The translations under genes were made by a program, and so were the position numbers. The notes under the pieces are model-generated. The model ran no database searches, was not told the DNA's origin, and saw only the letters and a program-made list of their open reading frames with translations. A DNA stretch of 52,353 bases, filler included, from a bacterium (GTDB lineage: Bacteria > UBA9089 > CG2-30-40-21 > SBAY01): the NCBI GenBank assembly GCA_040757115.1. It is 3 parts of 3 records of this genome, joined end to end, with 100 filler letters (N's around TTAATTAATTAA, not from the genome) between each part and the next. Parts side by side here need not be neighbours in the genome. Positions count along the whole stretch, not along the records: positions 1 to 17,529 come from JBFLYA010000072.1; positions 17,630 to 35,114 come from JBFLYA010000073.1; positions 35,215 to 52,353 come from JBFLYA010000074.1. One strand, written 5' to 3'. Position 1 is the first letter of the stretch. Each line of letters opens with the position of its first letter. Below are positions 3,111 through 52,182 of the stretch, piece after piece.

Positions 3111-3355
3111 GTAACCGTTCACCGTAGAGACACAGAGACGCAGAGAAAAAATTAAAATCTATTCACCAGAGACAGAAATTTCCTTTTTTTGTGCATTTCG
3201 GGTCTTTCCCTGTTTATTAATCTTTTAATACTTACTTTTGACTAACTGTTTTTAAGCCTTTTTAAACACCGAAAAACGCGAAAAACACGAAAAAAAAGAT
3301 ATTTTCCTCTCTGTTTCTCTGCGTCTCTGCGGTAAAGGATTACCTAAACGGTTAC
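3111..3355. mobile_element. MITE, GTAAC-TIR family, type A (uninterrupted copy)
   Basis: GTAACCGTTCA..TAAACGGTTAC ends with inverted CAGAGACAC/GCGTCTCTG 9-mer arms. Near-identical to 4950-5633 and 22154-22274. No TSD seen. Confidence 0.85.
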
Positions 3356-4480
3356 CTTTTTCCTGATTCCTAAGATACTCAAAAAGAATGATGAAAATAT
3401 GACTTGAATGCCAATGACTATAAAAGTTAAAGCGACTAAGCCAGTTCGCACCTCACTTAACGGACCAAAATTGCCTGCTATCCATCGAATTAAGATATAA
3501 ACATTTATCCCTAATCCTAATAAGGTAACTAATGCACCAATAATTAACCCTCTTTCTAAATTGAAATAATGTGAAAACCATTCGATAAATCTATCGCTTT
3601 CTTCAAAATGTTCAGTTAGAGAGTAGCTTTTAGCATACAATCCAAGATTAACAATTTGAAAGCCCAGAATAGCCAACAGGCTACCTAACACCATATAATG
3701 AATATCAAAATGTAGATTTCCTATTTTGAGTGGTCCCGGGAGTAAGACAAGTAAAAAGACTAATCCAATAAAGAATAGGATTATACCTGGTATTAAAAAT
3801 AAATAGGTAGGGGAATACAACAGCATAAACCTGAGATGTCGCCAGCCATCTTTAAATGAGGCAAGTTTTGATTCTCCTTCTCGTGGATGATAGGTGATGG
3901 GTAGTTCTTTAATTTTAAGTTTAAGTTTCAATGCCTTAATGACCATTTCAGAGGCAAATTCCATACCGATAGTTTTAAGGTTCATTTTTTTATATGCCTC
4001 TTTAGTTACCGCTCGCATACCACAATGAGCATCCGATATTTTGCCATGAAAAAATAAGTTTAAAATCCCTGTAAGTATTGGATTACCGATATATCGATGT
4101 AACCAGGGCATAGCCCCGGTTAAGATTTTACCTTTAAATCGACTACCAATACAAAACTCATATCCTTCTCTGAGCGGGATTAAAAATTTACCTATTTCTT
4201 GCAAATCATAGGTATTATCGGCGTCAGCCATAATGATATATTTTCCATTAGCCTCTTCCAAACCCATCAGATAGGCACTACCATAACCTTTTATAGGTTG
4301 ATATACTACCTTAGCACCAAGTGATTTAGCGATATTATCTGAATTATCCGTAGAGCCGTTATCAACGACAATCACCTCTCCTTCTACACCTTCATCTTTA
4401 AAGGATTTTAGTGCCTTTTTAATACAAATTCCGATAGTATCTTTCTCATTCAAGCAGGGCATAATTACAGATACATCCAT
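3344..4480 (-). CDS. GT2 glycosyltransferase (polyprenol-phosphate glycosyltransferase-like) with C-terminal TM helices
   Basis: VIMPCLNE, VVDNGSTD, DAD and SDAHCGMR motifs; hydrophobic C-terminus. Confidence 0.9.
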   Translation of the reverse strand: MDVSVIMPCLNEKDTIGICIKKALKSFKDEGVEGEVIVVDNGSTDNSDNIAKSLGAKVVYQPIKGYGSAYLMGLEEANGKYIIMADADNTYDLQEIGKFLIPLREGYEFCIGSRFKGKILTGAMPWLHRYIGNPILTGILNLFFHGKISDAHCGMRAVTKEAYKKMNLKTIGMEFASEMVIKALKLKLKIKELPITYHPREGESKLASFKDGWRHLRFMLLYSPTYLFLIPGIILFFIGLVFLLVLLPGPLKIGNLHFDIHYMVLGSLLAILGFQIVNLGLYAKSYSLTEHFEESDRFIEWFSHYFNLERGLIIGALVTLLGLGINVYILIRWIAGNFGPLSEVRTGLVALTFIVIGIQVIFSSFFLSILGIRKKVTV

Positions 4481-4554
4481 TGTTCACTCCTTATCAGCAT
4501 ATAACCTGTAACTGTGATTCAGACACTGGACATCAGACACAAGACTATAGACTC

Positions 4555-4718
4555 TATACCCAAATAAATTGAGTTTGCAAATATTTTGCTCTAAAAAGGG
4601 ATCAAGGATTCAAGGGGTCAAGGATTCAAGGGAGGTGAAAAATAAGATGTTCACTCGACCCCTGGATCCCTTGAATCCTTTCAAGAAAGTTTTTGCAAAC
4701 CTGTTTTCTTTGAGTATA
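4555..4718. mobile_element. MITE with ~27-bp imperfect TIR (TATAC(C/T)CAAA..GTTTGCAAA)
   Basis: TIRs at 4555-4581 and 4692-4718; internal inverted 8-mer arms AAGGATTC/AAGGGGTC versus GACCCCTG/GAATCCTT. Confidence 0.7.
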
Positions 4719-4776
4719 AATCGTAACTCGTGTCCCGTAAACCCGTAGAATTATATGATGGTTAGCCAGTAAGTTA

Positions 4777-4805
4777 ATTATACAAAAATAGTTATTATTT
4801 GTCAA
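4777..4805 (-). promoter_or_regulatory. sigma70 promoter for the GT2 gene
   Basis: Perfect TTGACA-17-TATAAT on the minus strand. Confidence 0.75.
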
Positions 4806-5139
4806 TTTAAAAAATTTTCTGAAGTAAGAGGTTAGTAAAGTGAGAGGATTAATCTGATTTTCAAAAGAACCACGGAAATACAGAAATTATGAAGCACGGA
4901 AATTTGATAGAGTAATTCTATGAATAGAAAGGGATGTCCATCAATTTTTGTAACCGTTCACCGCAGAGATACAGAGACGCAGAGAAAAAATTAAAATTTA
5001 TTCACCAGAGACAGAAATTTCCTTTTTTTGTGTGCATTTCGGGTCTTTCGTTGTTTATTAATCTTTTAATACTTACTTTTGACTAACTGTTTTTAAGCCT
5101 TTTTAAACACCGAAAAACGCGAAAAACACGAAAAAAAAG

Positions 5140-5566
5140 GTAACCGTTCAGCCACAGAGGCACAGAGTTCACAGAGAATTAGAGAAATTAGCTATAAATG
5201 GACACGAATTAACCTGTGCCATTCGATAAATGTAGTGCGAACCTTTAGGTTCGTTTTCCTGCTTGCCAGAAGCGAGGCTAAAGTCTCGCACTACAAATCT
5301 TTTCCACCTGTGCGATTAGACTAATTCATCGCAGAGACACAAAGGAAAAATATAATGTCAAATGTAAAATAGGAAATGAAAAATGGGAAATTTTAGTACT
5401 TCGCAAGATTCATTACCTTTCAGTTATACACTTTCATTTTTCATTTTACATTATCCATTTTACATTTAACCGCACAGGTCGAATCTTTTTATTATTCGTG
5501 TTCATTCGTGGTTATATATTTCCTCTGTGTTCTCTGTGACTCTGTGGCTATATCCTGAACGGTTAC
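5140..5566. mobile_element. MITE, GTAAC-TIR family, type B (carries a REP doublet)
   Basis: GTAACCGTTCAG/CTGAACGGTTAC ends. 8-bp TSD AAAAAAAG at 5132-5139 and 5567-5574; empty site visible at ~3291-3298. Confidence 0.92.
5304..5481. mobile_element. MITE, C(G/C)ACCTGT-TIR family (type C)
   Basis: CCACCTGTGCG..CGCACAGGTCG ends. 8-bp TSD AATCTTTT at 5296-5303 and 5482-5489; empty site at ~17776-17783. Confidence 0.92.
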
Positions 5567-5629
5567 AAAAAAAGATATTTTCCTCTCTGCGAACTCTTGC
5601 GTCTCTGCGGTAAAGGATTACCTGAACTG

Positions 5630-7246
5630 TTACTCTTCCTTACTTTCCTTTAAACTTGCCCCAATAAAATCTCTAAATAATGGATGAGGATTGGTCGGTT
5701 TAGATTTGAATTCAGGATGAAATTGAGTGGCAACAAACCACGGGTGGTTTTTTAACTCAATTATCTCAACTAAATTATCATCTAACGATAGCCCACTAAA
5801 AATAACATTATGTTTTAATAGTATTTTTCGATATTTATTATTTACCTCATATCTATGTCTGTGTCGTTCGGAGATTATCTTTTCACCATAGGCTTTATGA
5901 GCAAAAGAACCGTGTCCAAGTTTAGCCGGATATCGTCCCAAACGCATTGTGCCACCCTTCTCTTTTGTGTTTTTTTGTATTTCCATTAAATCGATGACCG
6001 GATGCGGTGTATTGGGGTCAATCTCTGAGCTATTGGCATTTTTTAGTCCAGCAAGATTTCTTGCTAATTCTATCACCGCACATTGTAACCCTAAACATAT
6101 TCCCAAAAATGGTATTTTATTCTTTCTCGCATAAGAAACTGCTTCAATCTTTCCCTCAATCCCTCGATATCCAAAACCTCCAGGAACTAATATCCCATTG
6201 ACATCTTTAAATGCTTTATCTATCTTTTTTTGGGTGTTAAGTTCTTCTGAATCAACCCATTTAATATGAACCTTCACTTGATGAGGAACACCACCATGAA
6301 TTAGTGCCTCAACAATGCTTTTGTAGGCATCTTGAAGCTGGATATATTTTCCAACCACAGCGATATTAACCGACGAATCGGGACTTTTAATAATATTGAT
6401 TACCTTATTCCATTGTTCTTCTTGAGGGATGGATTCATAAGGCGGGGAAAGATTCAATAATTTTATAATAATCTTATCCAGCCCCTGTTTTTTAAATATT
6501 AATGGGACCTCATAAACACTACTGACATCATAGGCATCAATTATTGCCTCTTTATCCACATCGCAAAATAAGGCAATTTTATCCTTGAGTTCTGATAGTA
6601 GGGGTTTTTGCGTTCGACATAGAATAATATCCGGAGCAATACCAATCTCACGAAGTTTCATAACTGAATGTTGAGTAGGTTTGGTTTTAATTTCGTTTGA
6701 GACACTTATAAATGGGACTAAAGTAAGGTGGATATAAAGGACATTTTCTTTGCCAACATCTTTACGGAATTGTCTAATTGCCTCCAAAAAAGGTAATCCT
6801 TCAAAATCCCCAACTGTTCCACCAATTTCACCAATAACTACATCCACATCATCTTTGGATAGTTTTAATATTCCCGCTTTAATCTCGTCAGTGATATGTG
6901 GAATTACCTGGACAGTCTTGCCAAGATAATCGCCCTTTCTTTCTTTAGTTATGACTGAATAATAAACCATTCCGGCAGTGATATTGCTTTCTTTATTGAT
7001 AATTGAGTTAGTAAATCGCTCATAATGTCCTAAATCAAGGTCTGTTTCTGCTCCATCATCCGTAACATAGACCTCACCATGTTGATAAGGGCTCATTGTG
7101 CCGGGGTCAACATTTATGTATGGGTCAAGTTTTTGCATTCGGATTTTTAGTCCTTTGTTTTCTAATATATGTCCAATAGATGCGGCGGCAATGCCTTTAC
7201 CTAAAGATGAGACAACACCACCGGTGATAAAGATAAATTTTGTCAT
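5630..7246 (-). CDS. pyrG: CTP synthase
   Basis: [25 protein letters not shown] and QFHPEF motifs. Confidence 0.98.
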
Positions 7247-7262
7247 ATTACCTCTTCCCTGA

Positions 7263-7991
7263 TTACCAATTACTGATTACCTGTTTTCTTACCTTCTCTA
7301 AATCATCTTCAGTATCCACTCCTATTGATAAATATTCAGTTTCAACTACCTTAATTTTATATCCATTTTCTAATACCCGTAATTGTTCTAATCCTTCTGT
7401 TTGTTCAAGGGGAGTGGCTGGTAGTTGAACTAATTTTAATAAAAAATCCTTGCGATAAACATAAAGTCCAATATGTTTATAATTCTCATAATGAAATTGA
7501 TGTCTAAAAAAAGGTATTGGTGAGCGAGAGAAATAAAGGGCAAAATCATCTTTATCCGTAACTATTTTAACGACATTAGGATTAGATAATTCAGTTTGGT
7601 CTGTTACTTTGTGTTTAAGGGTAGTCATATAAATGGTTGGGTCGGTCAGGAGAGGTTTAACTGCCTCATCAATCGCAGAAGGTGAAATTAGAGGTTCATC
7701 ACCTTGAACATTAACTACAATTTCTACATCAAGTTGTTCTGCGACTTCCGCGACTCTTGAAGTTCCTGATTGATGTTCTCTTAAGGTCAAAAATACCTCT
7801 CCGCCAAAGTTTTTAACCCTGTCATAAATTTGTTGTGAGTCAGTGGCAACAATTAATGCCTCTAAAGTCTTAGATTTTTTCGCCCCTTCATACACCCATT
7901 GAATCATTGGTTTATCTAATATTTTAGCCAATGGTTTGCCGGGAAATCTTGTTGAAGAAAATCTTGCGGGAATTATCCCCACTATTTTCAT
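7263..7991 (-). CDS. kdsB: 3-deoxy-manno-octulosonate cytidylyltransferase
   Basis: [32 protein letters not shown] and LEQLRVLE motifs. Confidence 0.97.
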
Positions 7992-7994
7992 CTT

Positions 7995-8747
7995 TTATTT
8001 CTGTTCCTTCCAGATATTAAAATATCCTAAAGCAAATAGGGTTAAGACGAGCACTGGACACACGACTATTACCCATCCTCTCCACCAATTATAACCTTGT
8101 GGGAATATGGTGAAAAAGGTTATTATTCCTGTAATTATCCAGACTAAAAGTAATAATGTTACTCCCGCAACTACTCGTAATCTAAAATTACTTGCCTTTT
8201 TGTCAAGGTCTGTTGTTTCATACCAGAGTTGTAATTTAACCAGTTCTTCACCCAGTTCATCTAACGCGCCTTTCTGGAATTTCTCTTTTAATGATTTAAT
8301 CAATTCCGATAATTCTATAGGTACTGTTGTTGGTTTTTTCTGGTTCGCCATTTCCTCTAATATCTTTTCAATCTGTAAGATACATTCTTCTTTTTGTTGT
8401 AAATCTAATTTCGCATCCTCTTTAAGTGAAAGTTCAACATCTTCTAACGGGACTTCTGGAGGAATATACATCGTTAATTTTACCCCTTTTTGTCTGCCTA
8501 CGGAACGAATAAGTCGATATATTCTGGCGACAGAGATAGGTTGTTTGTTAATTAAATCCCTTTTTAATATCTCAATGAGTTTCTTCATCGCTTTTTTACT
8601 CTTAGTCAAAACATCCATTAATTTGCTACTTATAATCCAACTGACGAGAGCTGTTAAAAATATCCCCAGTAACATTCCCACGAGTAATGTTCCCAGAGTT
8701 GCTAATTGTTGTTGCACAACATTTATATTCATTTTTTTTACCTCCAT
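7995..8747 (-). CDS. hypothetical membrane protein (1 N-terminal and 2 C-terminal TM segments)
   Basis: 250-aa ORF co-directional in the rfaE-kdsB operon, with hydrophobic segments. Confidence 0.75.
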   Translation of the reverse strand: MEVKKMNINVVQQQLATLGTLLVGMLLGIFLTALVSWIISSKLMDVLTKSKKAMKKLIEILKRDLINKQPISVARIYRLIRSVGRQKGVKLTMYIPPEVPLEDVELSLKEDAKLDLQQKEECILQIEKILEEMANQKKPTTVPIELSELIKSLKEKFQKGALDELGEELVKLQLWYETTDLDKKASNFRLRVVAGVTLLLLVWIITGIITFFTIFPQGYNWWRGWVIVVCPVLVLTLFALGYFNIWKEQK

Positions 8748-8760
8748 TTGTTTGGTAATT

Positions 8761-9256
8761 TAGAGTTCTGCAAAACTAAGAAACTGTAGTTTTTAAGCGG
8801 GTATTTAAAACCTCTATTTTTATCAAATTCCTCCAAATATCAAAATGCAAAACTCGTTTATAGTTTATAGTGTATAGTTTATAGTTTAGGGTTTATAGTG
8901 TATAGTTTATAGTGTATAGTTTATAGTCCTTCAACTATCAACTATCAACTATAAACTATCAACTATCTTTGCCAAAGTTCAGTAAAATTATCTTTTTCCT
9001 TTCAGCGTTAAGATACTTGAAGCAAAGATATTACCAGATTCCTCCAACTCTTTGAGAAACCATGCTACTTCCTATTGCTCACCAATTCTTTGAGAAACAC
9101 TATCCTTTGGCAACTTATCGATGAATTCTATAAGTCGCAGAGTGAAGTTATACAATCTTTTCTTGAAGTCCTTTTTGAAATTTGATTTGTAATTTTGCAT
9201 TTTGATATTTAATATTTATTTGCTGTCTCCCCCAAATCCTATTTTGCAGAACCCTA
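8761..9256. mobile_element. MITE type F (TIR TAG(G/A)GTTCTGCAAAA) carrying a four-helix-bundle pseudogene
   Basis: 15-bp TIRs; internal TTTATAG/CTATCAA 7-mer arrays; homologous to 30567-30885. Confidence 0.88.
8988..9200 (-). pseudogene. four-helix-bundle protein (23S rRNA IVP/Avd-like family), internally deleted
   Basis: Translates MQNYKSNFKKDFKKRLYNFTLRLIEFIDKLPKDSVSQRIGEQ* then EVAWFLKELEESGNIFASSILTLKGKR*. The central helices are missing. Confidence 0.8.
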
Positions 9257-9274
9257 TCGGTAATTAGTTACCAG

Positions 9275-9754
9275 TTACTTATTATATCTCTCAATAATCG
9301 TTTGAATTAAATTAGTGGTTGATTTACCTTTAATTTCTGGAATGGTCAATACTTTTCCACCAGCAGAGGTGACAATTTCTCGACCTTTTATTTCATTTAA
9401 TTGATAATCACCTCCTTTAACTAATACATCGGGAATTAACTCCGAAATTATTCTGACCGGGTCAATCTCTTCAAATATAAGCACATAATCAACGCAAGAT
9501 AAAGCAGAGAGGATATAGGCTCTATCTTCTTGAGGCATCAGAGGTCTTGTATCCCCCTTAATCTTTTTGATAGATTCATCACTATTAATGGCAACAATTA
9601 AAATATCACCATAAGTTTTTGCCTCTTCAAGGTATTTTATATGACCATAATGCAAAATATCAAAACAGCCATTGGTAAAAACTATTTGTTTGTCCTGATT
9701 TTTTAGATCGGATATTATATTTTTTAATTCCTCAAGGGTTTTAATTTTAGTCAA
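9275..9754 (-). CDS. rfaE2: D-glycero-beta-D-manno-heptose 1-phosphate adenylyltransferase
   Basis: VFTNGCFDILHYGH and VLVKGGDY motifs. TTG start at 9754 preferred (the ORF extends to 9781). Confidence 0.95.
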   Translation of the reverse strand: MTKIKTLEELKNIISDLKNQDKQIVFTNGCFDILHYGHIKYLEEAKTYGDILIVAINSDESIKKIKGDTRPLMPQEDRAYILSALSCVDYVLIFEEIDPVRIISELIPDVLVKGGDYQLNEIKGREIVTSAGGKVLTIPEIKGKSTTNLIQTIIERYNK

Positions 9755-10724
9755 GTTTTTTAATTCTTTCCTGCAATTCATCTATTTTTAATGTTGCGGT
9801 GCCTACTTTTTCGACGACGATTCCCGCAGCACAATTAGATAATCTGGCACAGGTTTTCATATCCAACCCTGCACCTAAAGCCATTGCCATCACCGCTACA
9901 ACCGTATCTCCAGCTCCCGTAACATCATAAACCTCTTTAGCAATCGTTGGGATATGCGTCACATCGCCATTTTGCTCAAATAGAGTCATACCTTCTTCGC
10001 CTCTGGTGATAAGGACTCCTTTAGCTTCTAATTGGGCTAAAATACTTTTGCCAACATTAATCAAAGATTCATCATCAACTATTTTTTTACGGGTTAGAGT
10101 TTCTGCCTCTTTAAGATTAGGGGTGATTACTGTTATTCCTTTGTAACTCAGGAAATGACTTTCTTTGGGGTCAACTATTATTGGTAGATTATATTTTTTA
10201 GTTAGAGGGATAATTTCTTCTAACAATCTTGCATTAATGACCCCTTTACCATAATCAGAGATAACAATACTCTGAATATCTTCGATGACCATTCTACAAA
10301 AACTCAATATTTGTTTACAAACCCATTCATCGATATTAGAGCGTTGTTCGCGGTCAACCCTGACTATTTGTTGGGAATGACCAATAATTCTTGATTTTAA
10401 TGTTGTCGGTCGTTCGCTATCAATCACTACGCCATCAATTTCAATTCCTTTTGCTTTAAAATCTGTAAGTAATTTTTTCCCGGTTCCGTCATCTCCAATT
10501 ACACCAGTGGGATATATTTTCCCTCCTAATGAATAGATGTTATTAATTACATTTCCCGCTCCGCCTGGAGCATAGGTGATTGAAGTTACCTCAACCACAG
10601 GCACTGGCGCCTCAGGTGAAATACGCTCTACTTTACCGTAGATAAATTCATCTATCATCAAATCGCCAATAACTAATATTTTGACACCTTTAAATTTATC
10701 AATCGCCCTGGCTAATTTATCCAT
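9747..10724 (-). CDS. rfaE1: D-glycero-beta-D-manno-heptose-7-phosphate kinase
   Basis: RISPEAPVP, SDYGKG and DVTGAGDT motifs. Confidence 0.95.
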   Translation of the reverse strand: MDKLARAIDKFKGVKILVIGDLMIDEFIYGKVERISPEAPVPVVEVTSITYAPGGAGNVINNIYSLGGKIYPTGVIGDDGTGKKLLTDFKAKGIEIDGVVIDSERPTTLKSRIIGHSQQIVRVDREQRSNIDEWVCKQILSFCRMVIEDIQSIVISDYGKGVINARLLEEIIPLTKKYNLPIIVDPKESHFLSYKGITVITPNLKEAETLTRKKIVDDESLINVGKSILAQLEAKGVLITRGEEGMTLFEQNGDVTHIPTIAKEVYDVTGAGDTVVAVMAMALGAGLDMKTCARLSNCAAGIVVEKVGTATLKIDELQERIKKLD

Positions 10725-10777
10725 TATTCAAAAACCTCCATCTTTTGTAAGTGTTCAGGATGTAATAAAGGGAAAAG

Positions 10778-10968
10778 GTAACTGTTCACCGCAGAGACAC
10801 AGAGACGCAGAGAAAAAATTAAAAACTATGGACGATACTCATAAATCTGGTTACAATGTGCTATGTATTTCAATGTCTGCATCAATAATCTTTTATGTGC
10901 TCTAATTTATTTCTATGTCTTCTCTGTTCCTCTGCGTCTCTGCGGTAAATTACCCCCCTGAACGGTTA
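10778..10968. mobile_element. GTAAC-family MITE with a degraded GxxExxY gene (minus strand)
   Basis: GTAACTGTTCA..TGAACGGTTA ends. Minus strand reads IEIN*ST*KIIDADIEIHSTL*PDL..IVHSF*. Homologous to 27425-27678; an extra GTAAGTGTTCAG end lies at 10747. Confidence 0.8.
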
Positions 10969-10999
10969 AGTGAAACCCTATTCTGTCTATTGTCTTCTA

Positions 11000-11028
11000 A
11001 TTTTATCACAAAGGTTATATTCTGTCAA
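11000..11028 (-). promoter_or_regulatory. sigma70 promoter for the rfaE operon
   Basis: TTGACA-17-TAAAAT with TG extended -10. Confidence 0.65.
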
Positions 11029-11118
11029 CAAAATTTTACTTGACCGATTTTGACAACAGGCAGTCACTCTAAAGATTTCTTGTTTAAATGTCGATAAAAG
11101 AATAAGAGGGTTTTAACA

Positions 11119-12570
11119 ATGGCATATAAATCTTTTCAGGAATTTATACAAGAACTTGAAAGAATAGGAGAATTAAAACGGATAAAGAGTAAAGTTAGTC
11201 CTATATTAGAAATTACCGAGATTACAGATAGATTCTGTAAAAATCAGGGGCCGGCGTTACTATTTGAGCAAGTAGATGGGGCTTTAATTCCTGTTGTTAC
11301 AAATGCTTATGGCTCAATGGAAAGAATGGCATTGGCTTTAGGGGTAGAAAATCTCAATAAAATAGTTACTGAGATTGAAAATCTTATAAATACCGAAGTT
11401 CCAGATAATTTAATAGATAAACTTAAATTAATTCCTAAAGTATCTCAATTTGCCTCATTCATTCCTAAGAAAGTATCAGCAGGACTTTGCAAAGAAATAA
11501 TTATTGATAATCCTGATTTGAGCATTTTACCTATATTAAAATGCTGGCCTGAAGATGGAGGTAAGTTTATTACCCTGCCTATTGTTATTACTAAAAATCC
11601 CAGAACAGGTATCCGTAATCTGGGGATGTATAGAATGCAGGTGTATGATTCAAAGACTACAGGTATGCATTGGCATCCACATAAAGTTGGGGCAAAACAC
11701 TTTCAATTATATAAAGAAGTCGGAGAAAAGATGCCTGTTGCTGTTTGTTTAGGTGGTGACCCGGCAATTACTTATGCCGCCACTGCCCCTTTACCAGAAG
11801 AAATAGATGAATTGCTATTTGCTGGATTTTTACGAAAAAAACCTGTAGAAATTACCCAATGTCAAACAATTGATTTAGAAATTCCTGCTGACTCAGAGAT
11901 AGTCTTAGAAGGTTATGTTGACCCTACGGAAGAATTGCGACTTGAAGGACCTTTTGGTGACCATACAGGCTATTACTCACTTCCAGAAAAATATCCGGTA
12001 TTTCATCTGACCTGTATCACACATCGAAAAAATCCTATTTATCCAGCAACCATTGTTGGTAAACCACCTATGGAAGATTGTTTTATGGCTAAAGCCACAG
12101 AACGAATATTTTTACCTTTGATAAAACTCATATTCCCAGAAATAATAGACATAAATTTACCCATTGAAGGGGTATTTCATAATTTAGCCTTTGTCTCAAT
12201 TAAAAAAAGTTACCCTGGTCATGCCAAAAAGGTAATGCATGGTTTATGGGGATTAGGACAATTGATGTTCACGAAAATAATTGTTGTTTTGGATGAAGAT
12301 GTAGATGTCCAGAATTTGCAAGAGGTTATCTGGCGTATTGGAAATAATGTTGACCCCAAGCGTGATTTTATCTTTGTTGAGGGACCTGTTGATACCTTAA
12401 ATCATGCCGCTCCTTATCCAGGATTAGGCTCTAAAGTCGGCATTGATGCTACTAAAAAATCTAAAGAAGAAGGTTTTATGAGAGAATGGCCGCAAGATAT
12501 AAAGATGTCAAAGGAAGTAAAAAGAAAAATAGATAGTATCTGGGGAGAGATGGTAATCAGTAAGTGGTGA
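11119..12570 (+). CDS. ubiD: UbiD-family (menaquinone biosynthesis-type) decarboxylase
   Basis: NLGMYRMQ and EGPFGDHTGYY motifs; ubiX nearby. Confidence 0.93.
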   Translation: MAYKSFQEFIQELERIGELKRIKSKVSPILEITEITDRFCKNQGPALLFEQVDGALIPVVTNAYGSMERMALALGVENLNKIVTEIENLINTEVPDNLIDKLKLIPKVSQFASFIPKKVSAGLCKEIIIDNPDLSILPILKCWPEDGGKFITLPIVITKNPRTGIRNLGMYRMQVYDSKTTGMHWHPHKVGAKHFQLYKEVGEKMPVAVCLGGDPAITYAATAPLPEEIDELLFAGFLRKKPVEITQCQTIDLEIPADSEIVLEGYVDPTEELRLEGPFGDHTGYYSLPEKYPVFHLTCITHRKNPIYPATIVGKPPMEDCFMAKATERIFLPLIKLIFPEIIDINLPIEGVFHNLAFVSIKKSYPGHAKKVMHGLWGLGQLMFTKIIVVLDEDVDVQNLQEVIWRIGNNVDPKRDFIFVEGPVDTLNHAAPYPGLGSKVGIDATKKSKEEGFMREWPQDIKMSKEVKRKIDSIWGEMVISKW

Positions 12571-12603
12571 GGTGAACGGTTACCTGTTTTCATCATTTTT
12601 TAG

Positions 12604-12633
12604 TTGACAGAGCCTTTAATTCTGTGATAAAAT
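12604..12633 (+). promoter_or_regulatory. sigma70 promoter for the NTase-HEPN gene
   Basis: TTGACA-18-TAAAAT with TG. Confidence 0.55.
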
Positions 12634-12662
12634 AAATCAAGAATAAAAAGAGGAATCATAAC

Positions 12663-13349
12663 TTGAAATTAAATAAAGAATTTTCTAATCAAATAAAGTC
12701 TCTATTACTTAAATACGACCCTGATATAGTAGAAATCATACAATTTGGAAGTTCTGTCTATGGTCTTAAGTATGCAAGAGATTTAGACTTATTAATATTT
12801 ACTAAAAAAAAGAAGGGCTACGGAGGTTATTTAGATGCTCTTTCAAACTTAAATTTCCCATACTGGATTGATATTATAGTCAATAGAATTGATGAGTCAT
12901 TAGATGGATTAGCTAATGCAGTGTTAGTTTTTAATAAAATTTTATATGGGGATGGGAGGTATTTAATGGAAGCGACTAAGGATACCAATAAGCCAAACTA
13001 TAAAGAAGCAAAAGCAGAATTGAAAAATGCGAAAGATATCCTGAAATTAGGATTAGAGATTAAAGAAAAATTAAGGAAAGAGCACTTTTTCAGAAATGCT
13101 TTCAATAGTTTATTTCATGCTGTAAGATTTGCTTCAAGGGTATATTTATCTACTGATGAAAAGAGATGGGGTGAACTTAAAAAGAGACTCCCTAATCCAT
13201 ATCAAAAAGAATTTGAAAATTATATATCCACCTTACATATAAAATATTTCTATGATGGAAACTATCCAAAAGATAAAGTAAAAGAGGAGTTTGAAATCTG
13301 GTATAATAAAGTTAAAGACTATATTGAAAATCTACAGAAACAAAGCTAA
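12663..13349 (+). CDS. minimal nucleotidyltransferase fused to a HEPN-like helical domain
   Basis: FGSSVYG..DLDLLI (GS..DxD) motif followed by an all-helical C-terminal half. Confidence 0.7.
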   Translation: MKLNKEFSNQIKSLLLKYDPDIVEIIQFGSSVYGLKYARDLDLLIFTKKKKGYGGYLDALSNLNFPYWIDIIVNRIDESLDGLANAVLVFNKILYGDGRYLMEATKDTNKPNYKEAKAELKNAKDILKLGLEIKEKLRKEHFFRNAFNSLFHAVRFASRVYLSTDEKRWGELKKRLPNPYQKEFENYISTLHIKYFYDGNYPKDKVKEEFEIWYNKVKDYIENLQKQS

Positions 13350-13390
13350 AATGAGGATAGATAGGACTCACCTATGAAAAGGGTTTGTAA

Positions 13391-13996: not shown

Positions 13997-14008
13997 TTAA
14001 TTTTATTC

Positions 14009-14753: not shown

Positions 14754-14766
14754 GCAGACTTATTTA

Positions 14767-14912
14767 GAGCGGTTATTAACTGGAAGTTTACATAGGATAA
14801 TACCCATAAATAAGGCATGAGAATAATCGTTCCGTTAGGAACATAATATCGGTAGGAATAGATAGACAAATCAATCAGTTCCGTAGGAACGATATATTGG
14901 TAGAAAATTTAT
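14767..14912. mobile_element. partial type E element
   Basis: Matches 41557-41701; truncated by a type C element. Confidence 0.8.
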
Positions 14913-41384: not shown

Positions 41385-41444
41385 CACTATTTCCCTATTG
41401 TATAATGATACCATATAATTCAATTAAATGCAAGTAAAATTTTG

Positions 41445-41553
41445 CGACCTGTGCGATTAAGATAAACCACGAAGGGCACGAAGACCACGAAGAAAAAATA
41501 TTGTAACTATTCAGTAATTATTCAGCCACAGATTAACACGGATAAATAGCAGA
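41445..41553. mobile_element. left ends of type C and type D elements
   Basis: CGACCTGTGCGATTA plus CACGAAG 9-mers, then GTAACTATTCAG / GTAATTATTCAGCCACAG. Confidence 0.7.
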
Positions 41554-41958: not shown

Positions 41959-42195
41959 TAGTTGATAGTCCTTCAACTATCAACTATCAACGATTTTTAG
42001 TTTTACGCTTTTAGTTTTAAGTTTTTCAGAGAATTTTGCAAATTTGCCAAAGTTCAGTAAAATTATCTCTTTCCTTTCAGCGTTATTCTTTGGCAACTTA
42101 TCAATTTTGAAATTTGATTTGTAATTTTGCATTTTGATATTTGATATTTAATATTTATTTGTTGTCTCCCCCAAATCCTATTTTGCAGAACCCTA
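41959..42195. mobile_element. partial type F element with a four-helix-bundle remnant
   Basis: Ends TTTTGCAGAACCCTA; shares sequence with 8930-9256 and 14264-14590. Confidence 0.8.
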
Positions 42196-42212
42196 AATTC
42201 AATATAATAATC

Positions 42213-44767: not shown

Positions 44768-45403
44768 CGACCTGTATGGTTAGAAATTATAAACAATGAT
44801 AAGACTATGGAGTTAGATAATTTGAAAGCAATTTTTGTATGTGTATAGCGTGCTACAGTATGAGGGTATAAATAATTCCGTAAGATTTAATGTATCCCGC
44901 AGATTTCGCAGATGAAACGCAGAAATAAAGGGATTCGAGATTCGGGAATAAAAGAATCCCCTAACCACGAAATCCGAACCCCGAACCCAGTTTTCAGAGG
45001 AAACGGACATGAGCCAAGGCTCACAAAGGGCAATGAAAATGGGAGAAGGACAACCCCCTAACCCCCTTTATTAAGGGGGAATATGTGTTCTAAACCAGAG
45101 GATACGAGTCTGTGGATACTATACTAATTCGCTAATCTCTAATTCACTAATTCGCTATTTTCAGGGGAAACACTCATGAACCTGCGGCTCACAAAGGGGG
45201 ATGAAAATAATGGAAGAACAACCCCCTAACCCCCTTTATTAAGGGGGAATATCTGTTCTACACCATAGGATACGAGTCTGTGGATACTATACTAATTCGC
45301 TAATCTCTAATTCACTAATTCGCTATTTTCAGGGGAAACATCAACGATAATCTGCGAAATCTGCGGGAGATAGTCCATATTCAAAACCTAACCATACAGG
45401 TCG
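44768..45403. mobile_element. type C MITE with a composite interior
   Basis: Perfect 16-bp TIR CGACCTGTATGGTTAG; inverted CGCAGATTT arms; internal 168-bp tandem duplication. Flanks AAAAATTT/AAATTTTT are not an exact TSD. Confidence 0.88.
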
Positions 45404-46653: not shown

Positions 46654-49600
46654 TTATCTGATAATCACTAATTTCCCTGATTTTTTCTCAACACCATAGG
46701 TAACGATATAAATATATACTCCACTGGCAACATCCTTTGAATGACTGTCTTTGACATCCCATTCGTATATCGAACTGACATCCTCAATCATTCTTATCAA
46801 ATCTCCTGATATATCATAAATTCTAATCGTGGAATTAGCAGGTAACCCCTCAAATATGATTTTATCATCCCCTCTGCTGGGTTTAAAAGGAACAGGATAG
46901 ACGATGAATTTAGAGAGGTCTTGAGCCTCAAGATAAACAATTAAGGTGTAAATCCCAAGTCGGGAAATAGGGGCAGTGACTTTATTTTCAAATGTATTCA
47001 CCACGCCATCCTCAATTTTCACCCATCTATTGTTTTTTAATTCATAAATCGCTAAATTTAACTCTTTACCGCCAACCATAGATACATCCGCTTCACTATA
47101 GGTAATCGTAATAAAGGCTGATGTTGTGCCAAATCCCTCAGTTAAAATCTCTCTTTGTTCATTTCGTCCCTCGATTTTATAAACTGTATCTGGAATCCTT
47201 TTTACCAGAGTGTCTTTGTCGGTATAGTAATTAGCCGTAGTAACCTCTGGGTCGGGTGGGTCTTTGATAAAAACCGGGTAATAGTCTTCTGGTAGAAAAT
47301 ATCGCGCCACATCTATCGCTATATTTCCTTCTTGTATCTTTTCATCTTTACTATCGTCTATTAAAACAAAGAATGGATTACTCTTTATGGTTCTGACTCC
47401 ATCTGTGGCTGTTATTTCTACATCGGGCGTTGCTTTATTTATACTCACCGTGCCTGTCCATATCCCTGCGGTAAAATTACGGGTGATATTGATGGAATTG
47501 GTCGTGTCAGTTAAATTAAAAGCACCATTATAATCTGCGATATTCTCATAAATATCATAAGCGGTTACGGTTGCGGGGAAAGATGTCCGCCAGATTTGAG
47601 TTGAAATGTGGTCAATCTTAAAATGGTTCACAATTGCGGGCAAAACCGTAAATGGTGGGGAAATACCAGTTTTGCCTTGTGAAAATATATTAATGGTTAC
47701 ATTATCCATTGCCGTAGTAATAACAACCTCTTGTGAGCAAGTGCCTGATTTAAAATTAGAGGTAGTTTTGGGTAAAATAGTTGTGGTTGTATCCTTCAAT
47801 TCGCCAGAATTATTAAAACTTTCCACGATATTGCCATATTTATCGTAGGCAGTTATTTGAATCTCGAATTTTTGACCTGCAATTTGAACTTCAATAGGTT
47901 TAAACCCAAAATGGTCTAAGACATCCGAAATTAATGTAATTGTAGCAATTCCCGTTATCTCCTCGACTTTATATGTTAATATCTCAAGACCGGTTTTTGT
48001 TCCGGCAACAAAGGTCGTAGAGGTTGCCTCAAGATGAGTTAGAGTTCCAAGTCCATTTTCCATTTGCCATTGACCATTTATCACCCTTTCATTCGCATAC
48101 TTATCAAATCCTTTGGCTTTAAAAGGTTGTGAATTTGTAACCACAGTAATCGTTGCCTGTGGCAGGATAATAATATAAGATAAGGAGCCAGGGAGAATGG
48201 TAATTCCCGCGGTAGCAAAGATATTGCCGACAAAAGCCTTTATTATTCCTTTTCTAACTAATATCCCGGCGGTAAAGATGGTTTGTGAGCCAACATTTGC
48301 ATTAAAATATCCGATATTTTCAGTGACCTCCCAATTACATTCAAAATTCGCTAACTCATTATCATGGTCATCATATCCTTTAGCAATTAGTGGTGCGGCG
48401 GCATCTACAATTAACTCTAATGTGTTTGGTGAGATAGAGATGTAAGATAAATCAGAGGGGAAGACAGAAAATACATTGCTCATTCCTGTTTTAGTGCCAG
48501 ACCAGACCGTGATTACCGTAGTTCCTACCTGATTAATTGAAACTGTGCCTGTCCAGATGCCAGAGGTAAATTTTGTGGTAGTTTGTGGGGCAATCGTATG
48601 AGATGTATCCTGAAGATAGGCAGTATTATTATAATCCGCAATGTTATCATAGGCATCATAAGCGGTGATGGTAATTGGAAAACCTACCCCAGCAATTTGT
48701 GTGGTGATTGTTGCAAAGATAAAGAACTCAAAGTTATTGGGTTTAACTAAGAAGGTATTGCTTGTGCCAGATTTATCATTATCCATAGCGGTAATATTTG
48801 TTGTGCCCGCTTTTTTAATAACTACCATCCCGGACCATTGTCCATCTTTAAAATTACCACTTTGATAAGGCTGGACACTTAAATTAACACTATTAGAAAA
48901 TGTTGTTGCGGTATTTCCCCAATTATCATAAGCCGTAATTTTGATTAAGAAATCAATTCCCGCAATCTGTGTTCCAATTTCATCAAACAAAAAGTATGAG
49001 ACTTCACCTGGTTGAACAAGGAATGGGGGACTCACCCCTTTTTTACCTTTGCAATCAGCGATGAGTAGTGCCGTTCCTGCCTTAAAAACACTCACCGTGC
49101 CAATGTATTTACCATCTTTAAAATCAGTAATGGTCTTTGGAGTAATTTCACCATTAAGGTTAGTTAAGGTTACGGTATCTTTAAAGTCAAGGACAGGATT
49201 ATTCCAGAAATCTACTGCGGTAAGGGTGATAGTAAAAGGTGTTCCTGCGGTTTGAGTGCCAATATGGTCAAAATTAAAGTGATGATGCAGTCCAGAGGTT
49301 ACCGTGACCATAATAGAGTCAGATGGATTTTTTCCCCCAATGACTTTTGCGGTGATGGTGCCTGTGCCGACTTTGGTGGGTGCAGAGTAAGTTGCTATGG
49401 CTATGCCATTAATAGTCGGTGAAGATAAAGTTATAGAACCAATGATTGTGGACCAATCGACGATAGTTCCATCATCAGCGAGGTTACCAAATTCATCCTT
49501 AACCAGTGCAGTAATGGTCATAGTTTTTGTCACCGGGATAGTTACTGAGCCTGGTGAGATAGTTATGGTTGCGGGCGCGACTAATGCCCGAATTTGAATT

Positions 49601-51282
49601 ATATCTTCACCAGTTAAAGGTGTAGAATTATCATCAGTCACTTTTAAGAGTATGGAATATACGCCTGGTTGGAAGAATGTATGAGTAGTAATCGAGCCTG
49701 GTGCATTAAAGCCATCTCCAAAATCCCATTCAAATTTGACAATGTGTCGTTTTGGGTCAAGGTGGTAGGAGTTAGTGCCAATAAACTGGATTGATTTTCC
49801 TACCTGGATTATTTGTGGGTTAATCCGGGCTATGGCAACAGGTGGAGCACTGAATAAGGATTTCATTAAAATAAGTATTCCCCAGGCAGTAGAAAGTGAA
49901 GGGGTTAGATATATTGCCCAGTCTTTTTTATCCTCCCAATGACCATCAGGAAACTGATTTTTTAAAAGGTAATCTACATACTCATTATACCACTCAATAT
50001 CACCCAGCATATCTGGCGAGGGTAATTTTATAAGCCTTAGCCCTTTCATAATGGCATACATACCATAAAAATTACCAAAATTGGCACCGCCATTTTTCCA
50101 ATTGTTATACAAGTAATTAATTGCCTTGTTGGGTTTTTCTTCAGTAGCGGTATATCCGAGATAGGCAAAATCAGCTATTCCCGCACCAGTCCTCACCGCA
50201 GAAGGGTCAGATGGAGATGTATATCCAAAACCCCCATTATTGGTATTTTGACTATACTCTAACCAATATTTTAACTCATCTTTAAGAAATTGAGGTGCGG
50301 ATATATTCCAGGGGTCAGTTGCTGAGGCGGTTAATCCTATTACTGGCCATTGAGTTGCAGAATTATCACTGGACCCATTCTGATTATTATAAGGAGAATA
50401 TTGCCAACCACCCCTTCCATGGGGGGTGTGAGTACCTTCATCACTTTGTGACCAGGCACAATAATCAACCATATCTTGAAGAATCTCTCGATATGTTCGA
50501 TTTATAACCGGCCCGGTCCTGGCTACTCGCTCTGGTTGACGACTGCCGACTATCGCCATCATCATTGGCCCTATTTCATATATAGGTTGACCTTGGTATA
50601 TTCCTATTCCTATACCATTGTCATTTGTATCCGGGTCTCCAGCGGTTTGTGTGCCAATTGTAACTATTTCACATCGGGTAAAAAGATAATTAAATCCTCT
50701 TTCTATTGTTTCTACATACGGGTCTTCATCTCTATCCCCACCTGGTAACCGTCCTTGATTTTCAAATGCCTCAATTGCCGCCGCAGTAGGCGAAACATAA
50801 AAACCAGACGCCTTCCAATATCCGCATTCTGTCCCACTTTGTATTGTTCGTGTTTGGGTGCTATGTAGAAACCAGAGGGCATTATCAATAGCAATATCCA
50901 TCGCCACAGTAGTGGTCGCTTCTCTTATCCTGACTCGATAACTATCTGTGCCTGTATTATTCATTCCATCAGTTACTTTCAAGGTGGCAATGAATAGAGT
51001 ATTTTCACTTCCTTTATAAGTATGTGTAGCAGATATGCTGTAAGGATTAGTCACTATCTTAGTTATAGTCGAATTACCATCCCCAAAATCCCACTGGTAT
51101 TTTAAAGTTCCAGTGCCCCGTTTAACGGTACCTTTAAGGATAATTTCTTTTCCACTCCAGGTTTGATGTGCGTTATATGAGTTATACCAGGGAACACAGA
51201 TTACCTTTAGAGATTCCTCTGCCGATACATAAGCAGGTAAAAATAAAATTAGAAGGATTAAAGACTTTTTAAAATCCATCAT
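46654..51282 (-). CDS. large secreted protein: PKD domains, prenyltransferase/squalene-cyclase-like alpha/alpha barrel, Ig-like repeats and a T9SS-type C-terminal sorting domain
   Basis: Signal peptide; WDFGDG x2; GGWQY/GGFGY/Q..DG.W; repeated F..I.TQ.AG..F.I.ITAYD..N; tail YPVPF..IYDISG.LI..WD....ASGVYIY..GKLVIIR. Confidence 0.8.
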   Translation of the reverse strand: MMDFKKSLILLILFLPAYVSAEESLKVICVPWYNSYNAHQTWSGKEIILKGTVKRGTGTLKYQWDFGDGNSTITKIVTNPYSISATHTYKGSENTLFIATLKVTDGMNNTGTDSYRVRIREATTTVAMDIAIDNALWFLHSTQTRTIQSGTECGYWKASGFYVSPTAAAIEAFENQGRLPGGDRDEDPYVETIERGFNYLFTRCEIVTIGTQTAGDPDTNDNGIGIGIYQGQPIYEIGPMMMAIVGSRQPERVARTGPVINRTYREILQDMVDYCAWSQSDEGTHTPHGRGGWQYSPYNNQNGSSDNSATQWPVIGLTASATDPWNISAPQFLKDELKYWLEYSQNTNNGGFGYTSPSDPSAVRTGAGIADFAYLGYTATEEKPNKAINYLYNNWKNGGANFGNFYGMYAIMKGLRLIKLPSPDMLGDIEWYNEYVDYLLKNQFPDGHWEDKKDWAIYLTPSLSTAWGILILMKSLFSAPPVAIARINPQIIQVGKSIQFIGTNSYHLDPKRHIVKFEWDFGDGFNAPGSITTHTFFQPGVYSILLKVTDDNSTPLTGEDIIQIRALVAPATITISPGSVTIPVTKTMTITALVKDEFGNLADDGTIVDWSTIIGSITLSSPTINGIAIATYSAPTKVGTGTITAKVIGGKNPSDSIMVTVTSGLHHHFNFDHIGTQTAGTPFTITLTAVDFWNNPVLDFKDTVTLTNLNGEITPKTITDFKDGKYIGTVSVFKAGTALLIADCKGKKGVSPPFLVQPGEVSYFLFDEIGTQIAGIDFLIKITAYDNWGNTATTFSNSVNLSVQPYQSGNFKDGQWSGMVVIKKAGTTNITAMDNDKSGTSNTFLVKPNNFEFFIFATITTQIAGVGFPITITAYDAYDNIADYNNTAYLQDTSHTIAPQTTTKFTSGIWTGTVSINQVGTTVITVWSGTKTGMSNVFSVFPSDLSYISISPNTLELIVDAAAPLIAKGYDDHDNELANFECNWEVTENIGYFNANVGSQTIFTAGILVRKGIIKAFVGNIFATAGITILPGSLSYIIILPQATITVVTNSQPFKAKGFDKYANERVINGQWQMENGLGTLTHLEATSTTFVAGTKTGLEILTYKVEEITGIATITLISDVLDHFGFKPIEVQIAGQKFEIQITAYDKYGNIVESFNNSGELKDTTTTILPKTTSNFKSGTCSQEVVITTAMDNVTINIFSQGKTGISPPFTVLPAIVNHFKIDHISTQIWRTSFPATVTAYDIYENIADYNGAFNLTDTTNSINITRNFTAGIWTGTVSINKATPDVEITATDGVRTIKSNPFFVLIDDSKDEKIQEGNIAIDVARYFLPEDYYPVFIKDPPDPEVTTANYYTDKDTLVKRIPDTVYKIEGRNEQREILTEGFGTTSAFITITYSEADVSMVGGKELNLAIYELKNNRWVKIEDGVVNTFENKVTAPISRLGIYTLIVYLEAQDLSKFIVYPVPFKPSRGDDKIIFEGLPANSTIRIYDISGDLIRMIEDVSSIYEWDVKDSHSKDVASGVYIYIVTYGVEKKSGKLVIIR

Positions 51283-51367
51283 TTATATTTATACCATACA
51301 AACTAAAATTTGGCAAGAAAAAATAGATTGACAAAGATGATATTTTATGATACCTTATAATCTGTGA

Positions 51368-51859
51368 ATGGGAAAAAGGTTTTATTCAATTTTTAAAACT
51401 AAATTCGGTTGGATGGGGTTAATGGCGAGTAATATTGGTTTAACTCGTGTTATTTTACCTCAACCTGATAAGAAAAATATCCTTAAAATGGTGCAGGGTT
51501 TAGTTCGAGATGATAAATGTTTTGAGAAGACAAAAAACTCACTAATGAACTACTTTGAAGGTAAAAAAGTAGAGTTTGACTATCCGATAGATGTCCGGTC
51601 AGCGACTGAGTTTGAAAATAAAGTTTGGGAGGTTACCTGTTCAATTCCTTATGGTGAGGTAAGGAGTTATCAATTTATCGCAGAAAAGATAGGTAGGCCA
51701 AAGGCATTTCGGGCGGTAGGACAGGCATTAAAGAAAAATCCTCTTCCGATTATTATTCCCTGCCACCGCGTTATCCGAAGTGATGGGAAATCAGGTGGTT
51801 TTTTAGGGGGAATAGAGATGAAGAAAAACTTGCTCAGATTAGAACATAATCGGTCTTAA
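51368..51859 (+). CDS. ogt: methylated-DNA--protein-cysteine methyltransferase
   Basis: IPYGE, RAVGQA and NPLPIIIPCHRV motifs. Confidence 0.95.
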   Translation: MGKRFYSIFKTKFGWMGLMASNIGLTRVILPQPDKKNILKMVQGLVRDDKCFEKTKNSLMNYFEGKKVEFDYPIDVRSATEFENKVWEVTCSIPYGEVRSYQFIAEKIGRPKAFRAVGQALKKNPLPIIIPCHRVIRSDGKSGGFLGGIEMKKNLLRLEHNRS

Positions 51860-51953
51860 AAATGGTGGTAACCGTTCAGGATATAGCCACAGAGTCACAG
51901 AGAACACAGAGGGAATATATAACTACGAATGAACACAAATACAAAAAAATTTG

Positions 51954-52182
51954 GTAACTATTCACCACGAAGGGTACGGAGAGCACGAAGTGAAATTTGA
52001 TGAATTATCGAATAGAGTCATTGGATGCGCTATAGCGGTGCATCGAACTCTTGGGCCAGGTTTGCTTGACACCGTGAAGAGTGATAATTCACAATTCACA
52101 ATTGACAATTCACCATTCACCATTATTAAGGAAATTTAGGGAAGAAATTGTGAATGGTGAATTGTGAATGGTGAATAGTTAC
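51954..52182. mobile_element. GTAAC-family MITE with a 5'-half GxxExxY gene
   Basis: GTAACTATTCAC/GTGAATAGTTAC ends. 8-bp TSD AAAATTTG at 51946-51953 and 52183-52190. Confidence 0.92.
51990..52067 (+). pseudogene. GxxExxY protein, N-terminal fragment
   Basis: VKFDELSNRVIGCAIAVHRTLGPGLL, truncated just before the ExxY. Confidence 0.85.

Follow-up and report, generated by a model that had tools for sequence, protein, structure and literature searches.

The stretch analysed here (the window) is 52 kb of bacterial DNA with about 35% G+C, in which small elements with constant ends and differing interiors lie singly or nested within one another. Family A elements have GTAAC(C/T)(G/A)TTCA ends and family B elements have C(G/C)ACCTGT ends. 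Around them are ordinary bacterial genes (mutS, family-2 glycosyltransferase, CTP synthase, ubiD, and O6-methylguanine methyltransferase) and two very large genes for PKD/CBM-type surface proteins. We consider it likely that these elements form a dense, nested population of non-autonomous DNA transposons, in which IS66-type ends surround intervening-sequence-type cassettes or their remains.

The window was compared with a conspecific assembly (G001; 4.7 Mb in 770 contigs), in which the window genes are matched at 97-99% identity and whose contigs break at the element repeats. Chance tests used an unbiased sample of 296,738 bases, made up of the window and G001 contigs C1-C20. The public runs that contain the window sequence are groundwater metagenomes, and their contigs were also compared with the window.

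Elements in the window

Many interiors consist of inverted arms of tandem 7-8-base units, and some hold pieces of two small-gene families, four-helix-bundle (PF05635) and GxxExxY (PF13366). The elements are listed below by position. The plus strand is marked where it applies and the other entries carry no strand; "exact duplication" refers to the 8 bp on either side.

3111-3355: family A, CGCAGAG/CACAGAG arms; degenerate right end AAACGGTTAC plus an inner decayed end; no duplication
4950-5633: second copy of the 3111 type; host of two nesting levels
5140-5566: family A, CACAGAG arms, within the 4950 element; exact duplication AAAAAAAG
5304-5481: family B, ends CCACCTGTGCG / CGACCTGTGCG, within the 5140 element; exact duplication AATCTTTT
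10778-10969: family A deletion derivative of a GxxExxY cassette; degenerate right end GGTTAA
14009-14753: family A, CACGGAT arms, right end ..TAGTTAT; hosts a third-family element
14225-14706: third family, ends GGTGGTGTC...GACACCACC, within the 14009 element; exact duplication CGAATTTT
14913-15430: family B, 92% identical to 5304-5481; host of the 14973 element
14973-15298, plus strand: family A, GTAGGAA arms, with the N-terminal part of a four-helix-bundle gene (15056-15217); exact duplication GTGAAATG
15431-15580: half of a 5140-type family A element (right end)
15581-15919, plus strand: 3' fragment of an ISKra4/ISLre2-like transposase gene with family B-type end ..CATACAGGTGG; 92% over 340 bases to G001 contig C437
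15951-16187: family B, GGAGATA-type arms; exact duplication AAATATTC
17340-17861: composite, left end of the 34923 type joined to a right end of the 5140 type; no duplication
21546-22009: family A left end of the 14009 type, CACGGAT arms; right limit undefined; also in G001 C211
27425-27678: family A deletion derivative of a GxxExxY cassette; exact duplication CTAATTTA
34923-35349: family A, GGAGATA/GGGGATA arms; runs across a stretch of N
41445-41502: family B left end, CACGAAG arm; a family A left end at 41503 truncates it
44768-45403: family B, 636 bases, ends CGACCTGTATGGTTAG; flanks AAAAATTT / AAATTTTT agree at 6 of 8 positions
51868-51953: 5140-type family A element (one of its ends), split by the 51954 element and resuming after 52182
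51954-52182, plus strand: family A chimera of two cassettes; exact duplication AAAATTTG

Some limits need correcting against an earlier note on this DNA: the elements starting at 3111, 14913 and 44768 end at 3355, 15430 and 45403. A solo family A left end (10747-10777) adjoins the 10778 element, and a solo 14009-type right end (35350-35381) follows directly after the 34923 element. A left-end match at 26335 lies inside an open reading frame (ORF), has no right end, and may be due to chance. At least ten 3111-type copies are present in G001, at 91-94% identity. Two very large ORFs lie on the minus strand, at 35388-41423 (2011 amino acids) and 46654-51282 (1542 amino acids); the latter contains PKD domains along with a CHU_C type IX secretion signal.

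Terminal ends and target duplications

In the window, 15 sites fit the left-end form GTAA(C/G)(C/T)(G/A)TT(C/A)A and 18 fit a loose right-end form. Over the 296,738-base sample the family A motif GTAA[CG][CT][GA]TT[CT]A has 60 left and 52 right ends, compared with 0-4 for five permuted controls. An exact 8-bp repeat lies directly outside the ends in 9 of 57 left/right pairs spaced 60-2500 bases apart, and in 0 of 57 at nine other offsets. For family B we found 13 + 13 ends (0-4 for three control motifs), and four of ten pairs have an exact duplication at offset 0, with none at eight other offsets. The earlier note had proposed this comparison with chance, and it favours real target duplications in both families; all seven of the 8-bp duplications it named are exact. 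No 8-bp duplication was found around 3111-3355, 4950-5633, 10778-10969, 14009-14753, 34923-35349, or 17340-17861.

The ends are very numerous. Across G001 the 13-base pattern GTAACYRTTCASC occurs 357 + 351 times and its reversed control 0 + 0 times, which amounts to about 700 family A ends in 4.7 Mb. The end pattern is also abundant elsewhere in the phylum (520 in G012, 171 in G019, and 62 in G018), and small duplication-bounded elements were seen in G012 and G019 as well. Overall, 29 duplication-bounded family A elements of 158-802 bp were identified across all sequence examined, and their interiors fall into 7 loose or 15 strict clusters. Profile and alignment checks detected no transposase match inside the mini-element interiors. 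These elements are small, lack a transposase, and have terminal inverted repeats and a fixed-length target duplication above chance, and so belong with MITEs (miniature transposable elements bounded by inverted repeats). The claim that none of the elements is a transposase derivative holds for the interiors but not for the whole span, because 15581-15919 is the 3' fragment of a transposase gene with a family B end.

Minimal units of this kind are in G019, where three elements of 68-81 bases (L143, L165, and L169) contain little beyond two IS66-type ends and a short spacer. Their flanking repeats agree at 7 of 8 positions, and the 171 ends of this genome lie in 1.8 Mb.

Chimeric short-read metagenome assembly at repeats, or chance matches to short motifs, could mimic such a population. 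A run of N (35115-35215) lies inside one window element, G001 is broken at these very repeats, and the public runs were compared by contigs and not by raw reads. However, the control motifs reach 0-4 where the real motif has 52-60 matches, duplications appear at offset 0 only, and these elements and their nested composite recur in an independent assembly, which also contains an exact empty site. An artefact is therefore extremely improbable.

Recent movement and nesting

The earlier note suggested looking for empty sites in relatives, and G001 has an exact one for 27425-27678 (on C73), with a single copy of CTAATTTA. At 10750-10970, G001 instead has a different 29-base heptamer remnant, so this site does not count as cleanly empty. 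Copies of the 51954 type occur in at least 15 places in G001 at 94-100% identity, and copies of the 27425 type in at least 20 places at 85-96%; both counts are lower bounds because 40 of about 980 candidates were scored. The exact empty site and the near-identical copies bear out the view that these transposase-less elements have been mobile recently.

Three nesting levels are present at 4950-5633. In G001 (C69) the host element is at the same place without the 5140 insertion, and has a different family A insertion, of the 34923 type, elsewhere in the host. The empty target of the 5140 insertion is visible both there and in the 3111 copy, and that of the 14973 insertion is visible in the 5304 copy. 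G001 also has 5140-type copies without the family B insert (L113 and L117), and the composite of the 5140 element and its inner family B element was found together again in G001. The interiors had been described as interchangeable cargo. They do differ behind shared ends, but much of the difference is nesting of this kind.

Contigs of the source runs contain joints that skip 334 bases from 14967 to 15302 (326 + 8, the 14973 element) and 245 bases from 15944 to 16190 (237 + 8, the 15951 element), and also a joint from 5303 to 5493 (the 5304 element). Joints of an element plus 8 bases cannot be assigned to this locus and so add weak support only. Depth in the public-run contigs is a sum over copies and organisms and therefore gives no copy number. 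In the likely source run, summed depth over window positions 3000-17000 is about 300 for unique genes and 5,000-48,000 for repeat stretches, a contrast in keeping with very many copies but not a measure of their number.

In two 5140-type hairpin copies, the family B insert (AATCTTTT, 5296-5303) and the 51954 insert (AAAATTTG, 51946-51953) lie a few bases apart at the AT-rich centre. These two near-coincident insertions suggest a preference for the AT-rich apex. A further repeat family, with ends (T)AGGGTTCTGCAAAA...TTTTGCAGAACCCTA and long tandem arms of TATAGTT and CAACTAT units, is present at 8758-9268, 14260-14690, and 41980-42200. The first of these copies sits within a GGTAACT-heptamer hairpin, and G001 has the hairpin without the repeat.

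Origin of the ends

Family A ends begin GTAA(C/G)C and adjoin 8-bp duplications, as do published IS66-family ends. ISDge4, a member of the ISBst12 group with a single transposase gene, is given with ends GTAACTGCTCAGCA and an 8-bp repeat in the relevant part of PMC12898284, and ISPa75 with ends GTAACCGTCCGGGCA in that of PMC12888890. The entries for Pseudomonas elements of the IS66 family in these two sources have ends GTAAGCGTCC... and GTAACCGTCC... (PMC12898284, PMC12888890). Searching 40 related genomes with the NCBIfam IS66 model gave a match in 18, above the cut-off in 3. Elements with relevant ends are as follows.

L121, in G007 (same order as G001): 1505-bp element with one ORF of 468 amino acids (PF03050, E 4.5e-39; zf-IS66); both ends GTAACCGTTCACA
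L139, in G002 (of the G001 family): piece with 97-98% identity to L121; end as in L121
L122, in G018: element with a shortened transposase gene; end GTAACTATTCAGCA
L138, in G008: transposase 3' end and right end, GTAACTATTCAGCC
L137, in G007: IS66-family element; end GTAATAGTTCAGCCCCTT
L120, in G008: IS66-family element; end GTAACTACTCAGG

The outer 12-14 bases of the full IS66-family transposase elements in relatives are the family A ends, and the ends of L122 and L138 both have the form GTAACTATTCAGC(A/C). A PF03050 transposase bounded by family A ends is found in L121, that is, in a relative of the same order and not in this genome. Full IS66-family elements with these ends are present in G007, G008, G018, and G002; in G001 the match is limited to three contig edges, each with the 3' end of a gene for an IS66-family transposase whose terminus is GTAACTGCTCATC. 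Intact transposases with the same ends, as sought in the earlier note, exist in relatives (L121 and others), and no complete copy was found in G001. Because family A ends correspond to published IS66 ends and to the ends of transposase elements in relatives, we classify family A as non-autonomous IS66-type elements. The L121 and L139 transposases are 97-98% identical at the protein level between genomes of two different families, which suggests recent horizontal spread.

Family B appears to have a different source. In G001, an open frame of 359 amino acids with weak likeness to ISKra4 and ISLre2 transposases is followed directly by the family B end CGACCTGTATGGTTAG. On C437, CGACCTGTATGGTTAGG comes directly after the transposase gene, and the same 16 bases are present at window element 44768. 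The 359-residue protein scores 48 bits against NCBIfam ISKra4 (E 9.6e-13; cut-off 205) and 44.9 bits against ISLre2 (cut-off 200). It reaches no curated family score, has no Pfam match, and is a distant relative only of ISKra4/ISLre2. Both kinds of end can be assigned to insertion sequences: the IS66 family (A) and an ISKra4/ISLre2-like family (B).

Interiors and cassettes

By BLAST, the window family A interiors form 6-7 groups without detectable mutual similarity: 3111/10778/27425 (common arms), 5140, 14009/21546, 14973, 34923/17340-left, 51954, and 26335. The family B interiors form four unrelated groups, with 5304 and 14913 the same at 92%. The earlier note's report of four-helix-bundle and GxxExxY gene pieces is supported: 15056-15217 matches PF05635 positions 1-47 (E 5.7e-16), and 51954-52136 has a weaker match to PF13366 positions 2-26 (E 7e-4; 20.3 bits, under the 22-bit cut-off). 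The window has gene stubs only, with no intact cassette gene between ends.

Intact genes are found in G001, which has 39 matches to PF05635 and 71 to PF13366, many of them fragments. From the fetched loci we obtained 38 distinct ORFs, of which 20 are GxxExxY (91-196 amino acids, three cut short) and 18 are four-helix-bundle. In the common design, the gene lies between inverted arms of tandem 7-8-base units and the right arm begins just past the stop codon. The arm unit varies by cassette (GTAAGTC, GGCAGAG, CACAGAT, CACGGAT, CGCAGAG, CACAAAG, and others), and many cassettes fit exactly into the space between two host genes. For 22 of the 38 ORFs the longest inverted repeat in the flanks is at least 20 bases; in most others it is shorter or absent. 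Family A ends flank 5 of the 20 GxxExxY ORFs on both sides and 2 on one side, and of the 18 four-helix-bundle ORFs one is flanked by degenerate ends on both sides and another has an end on one side; the remainder have arms only. At one locus (L087, G001 C514), a GxxExxY gene is shortened by a family A insertion, and its stop codon comes from the first bases of the inserted end (GTAAC).

Some units combine ends, gene, and duplication. L077 of G001 is a 563-bp unit with an intact ORF of 132 amino acids of the PF13366 family and an exact duplication, AAATGGGA. As it has ends, a passenger gene, and a duplication but no transposase, it fits the definition of a mobile insertion cassette (MIC). Four duplication-bounded copies of 292 bp (L092, L094, L095, and L096) carry the C-terminal half of a GxxExxY gene, and L064-L069 are duplication-bounded elements with pieces of a four-helix-bundle gene.

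The window elements can be traced to such cassettes. Both 27425-27678 and 10778-10969 align to the end, arm, and gene start of the intact-gene cassette L070/L071 of G001: the first 86 bases of the 27425 element are 96.5% identical to L070, and 115 bases of the 10778 element match L070/L071 at 87-89%. In 51954-52182 a GxxExxY gene start with a CACGAAG arm is joined to the arm region of a four-helix-bundle cassette. Because the window elements align to intact cassettes, the gene pieces are remains of whole selfish cassettes and not captured fragments, contrary to the Pack-MULE-like capture proposed in the earlier note. Three diversifying processes are visible: deletion within elements, recombination between cassettes, and nesting after which the composite moves.

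Among 33 elements that were folded, 28 have at least 20 of their first 40 bases paired with the far end, and the remaining five have 9-16. Both 51954-type copies are among these five, and this type pairs via its ends only. Folding z-scores against mononucleotide shuffles range from -3.1 to -16.5.

A stronger form of the Pack-MULE reading is that the short ends themselves take up new hairpin-forming DNA actively and again and again, for instance by the template switching in gap repair that has been proposed for Pack-MULEs, so that cargo turnover is inherent to transposition. In a tree of the 20 GxxExxY proteins, capped cassettes are in at least three separate places, with at least three state changes on well-supported branches, and none of 200 bootstrap trees has a single origin. 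Ends and cassettes have therefore become associated, or parted, several times, as repeated capture would predict. However, the three changes may be one gain and two losses of ends. That two unrelated gene families lie between the same ends, and that 51954-52182 and 17340-17861 are chimeras, also fits capture, but ordinary nested insertion, deletion, and recombination between similar arms account for the chimeras. All of the cargo is other selfish DNA (intervening-sequence-type cassettes and mini-elements). No ordinary host-gene fragment was found in any of the 29 duplication-bounded elements, and every coding fragment found came from one of the two cassette gene families. We consider active capture unlikely.

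Alternatively, the roles could be reversed, with armed gene cassettes actively invading minimal palindromic mini-elements (two back-to-back IS66-type ends), much as they enter other hairpins between genes, so that the ends form a passive shell. The arms begin about 0-25 bases from the ends in every capped cassette, insertions cluster at the 5140-type hairpin centre, and most cassettes, which lack such ends, sit exactly between a stop codon and the next gene start. Elements of 68-81 bases with barely more than two ends do exist in G019, but the 68-base elements belong to another genus, and no pair of mini-elements was seen that differs only by a cassette. Nor did we find an enzyme or mechanism for cassette insertion, and to our knowledge none has been described. 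Invasion by cassettes is, in our view, less probable still than active capture.

Points that weigh against IS66-type mobilisation

Several observations do not sit easily with the view that IS66-type ends mobilise these cassettes. Most intact cassettes have no family A ends, so the ends do not account for cassette spread in general. Four of the five intact-gene cassettes capped at both ends (L070, L085, L086, and L089) have no matching 8-bp flanks. The lone capped four-helix-bundle cassette (L061, G001 C751; ORF of 145 amino acids) has ends GTAAGCGTTCC / ATAAGCGTTCA and a flanking repeat of 15 bases, GGAGGTTGAACGCTG, not 8. A complete transposase-bearing element with matching ends was not found in G001, which has fragments only, and a clear 8-bp duplication is absent at the five copies examined of full-length elements in relatives. 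The sole long IS66-type gene piece of G001, on C698, was rejected as the driver, as its end GTAATTGTTTACC occurs once in G001. Its nearest relatives are on two contigs labelled Nanoarchaeota, and the piece may therefore stem from a transfer or be a contaminant from binning.

The 15-base repeat at L061 itself includes a partial right end. The inner decayed ends GTAATCCTTTACC (about 45 copies) were considered as a second working set of ends for the C698 transposase and were dropped together with that candidate. The C698 element (L011) and its counterpart on a Nanoarchaeota-labelled contig (L018) are IS66-type elements with a small upstream AbrB-like ORF, near-identical by eye in DNA over the first ~300 bases; this likeness reflects either cross-domain transfer or a binning error. 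The 24-base ends of this type of element are complete in L017. No family A ends lie near a DDE protein of 526 amino acids on C212 (L012). Its ORF has weak matches to IS6, IS256, and IS66 transposase models and may be an unclassified DDE transposase.

Proposed mechanism

We nevertheless favour derivation of these elements from insertion sequences. Family A would be made up of miniature elements and cassettes derived from single-gene (ISBst12-like) IS66-family members. A DDE transposase of that family, acting in trans, would recognise the outer ~11-14 bases, GTAAC(C/T)(G/A)TTCA(C/G)C, and would insert anything between two such ends, making an 8-bp target duplication; these short ends would be sufficient. 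The interior is not arbitrary DNA but a second selfish unit, a cassette of the "23S rRNA intervening-sequence type", consisting of a small GxxExxY (PD-(D/E)XK-like) or four-helix-bundle gene within inverted arms of tandem 7-8-base units. Capped cassettes would decay by internal deletion to gene stubs or arms alone, and would diversify by recombination between cassettes. Other small elements would insert near the AT-rich centre of capped cassettes, and the composite would then move on as a single unit. Together, these processes could produce many interiors behind constant ends. Family B would follow the same scheme with the ends of an ISKra4/ISLre2-like insertion sequence.

Tentatively, there may be a two-layer parasitism, in which heptamer-armed cassettes of two gene families are repeatedly joined with IS66-type ends, one selfish element riding in or invading another; we rate this as possible but less likely than not. 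The PD-(D/E)XK-like protein might itself act in the transposition reaction and not be inert cargo. If two-layer parasitism is true, it would provide the first concrete, testable transposition route for these cassettes. Both small-gene families were first recognised in rRNA intervening sequences and are very common; here, some of their members belong to units that have transposon ends and exact duplications and can be tied to a named transposase family. This link to transposon ends makes cassette spread experimentally addressable.

Bacterial genomes are usually poor in MITEs. The genome of this groundwater organism, where about 700 ends of a single type lie in 4.7 Mb and elements nest to a depth of three, is a natural record of the diversification of non-autonomous elements. 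For annotation, abundant repeat ends of this kind mean that such genomes assemble into hundreds of contigs.

Comparison with known systems

The kind of element described here is already known in bacteria, given MIC231, the Tn3-derived mini-elements called TIMEs, passenger-carrying IS66 members, and MITEs that share only their ends with a parent; the earlier suggestion that nothing similar had been described in bacteria is therefore incorrect. In the part of PMC3913671 that treats them, MICs are inverted repeats around transposase-less passenger DNA with a target duplication, and MIC231 is moved in trans by the IS231A transposase (PMC3913671). The MICs (MIC231 of Bacillus cereus, and the qnrD and qnrS2 cassettes) resemble the present elements in that the inverted repeats of an insertion sequence bracket a passenger, with a duplication and no transposase, and L077 fits this pattern. 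However, the ends here are of IS66 type and those of MIC231 are of IS231 (IS4 family). The cargo here is a selfish, hairpin-armed small-gene cassette and not a metabolic or resistance gene, and the ends number in the hundreds per genome, with many derivatives that have undergone deletion. A paper cited in PMC3913671 reportedly terms the IS231-MIC231 elements "modular".

In bacterial MITEs such as MITEPsy1, similarity to the parent can be confined to the ends, as stated in the portion of PMC3189936 concerned. These MITEs are likewise small, transposase-less, and present in many copies, with inverted-repeat ends like those of insertion sequences and a duplication. Here, by comparison, there are several unrelated interiors per end type, stubs of two small-gene families, and nesting to three levels. 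The main text of a prokaryote-wide MITE survey does not mention IS66, passenger, or cargo (PMC11602168).

IS66 members with passenger genes are on record in the section of PMC12888890 devoted to them. The IS66/ISBst12 group, including tIS66, shares the GTAA(C/G)C end start and the 8-bp duplication, and has a single transposase gene. tIS66 elements keep this gene next to the passenger, whereas the window elements lack it. TIMEs are mini-elements that, in the account given in part of PMC4133298, experimentally mobilise other DNA and build mosaic non-autonomous elements with varied core modules. They differ in belonging to the Tn3 family, with 38-bp ends and 5-6-bp duplications, in having been studied on plasmids, and in that their mosaics are made by two flanking copies. 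In the literature searched, whose supplements may hold more, we found no intervening-sequence-type cassette as cargo, no genome with about 700 ends, and no case of several unrelated interiors behind one end type.

Plant Pack-MULEs are alike in lacking a transposase and in having constant ends around a variable interior that includes gene fragments. Here, however, the ends are of IS66 type with an 8-bp duplication and the fragments are from selfish cassettes, whereas those of Pack-MULEs are from ordinary host genes. Mutator ends are long, and the Mutator duplication is about 9 bp. The cassettes themselves are most like the ORF-bearing 23S rRNA intervening sequences, which also have PF05635 or PF13366 genes in inverted arms of tandem units, often exactly between operon genes; here, a subset adds transposon ends and 8-bp duplications.

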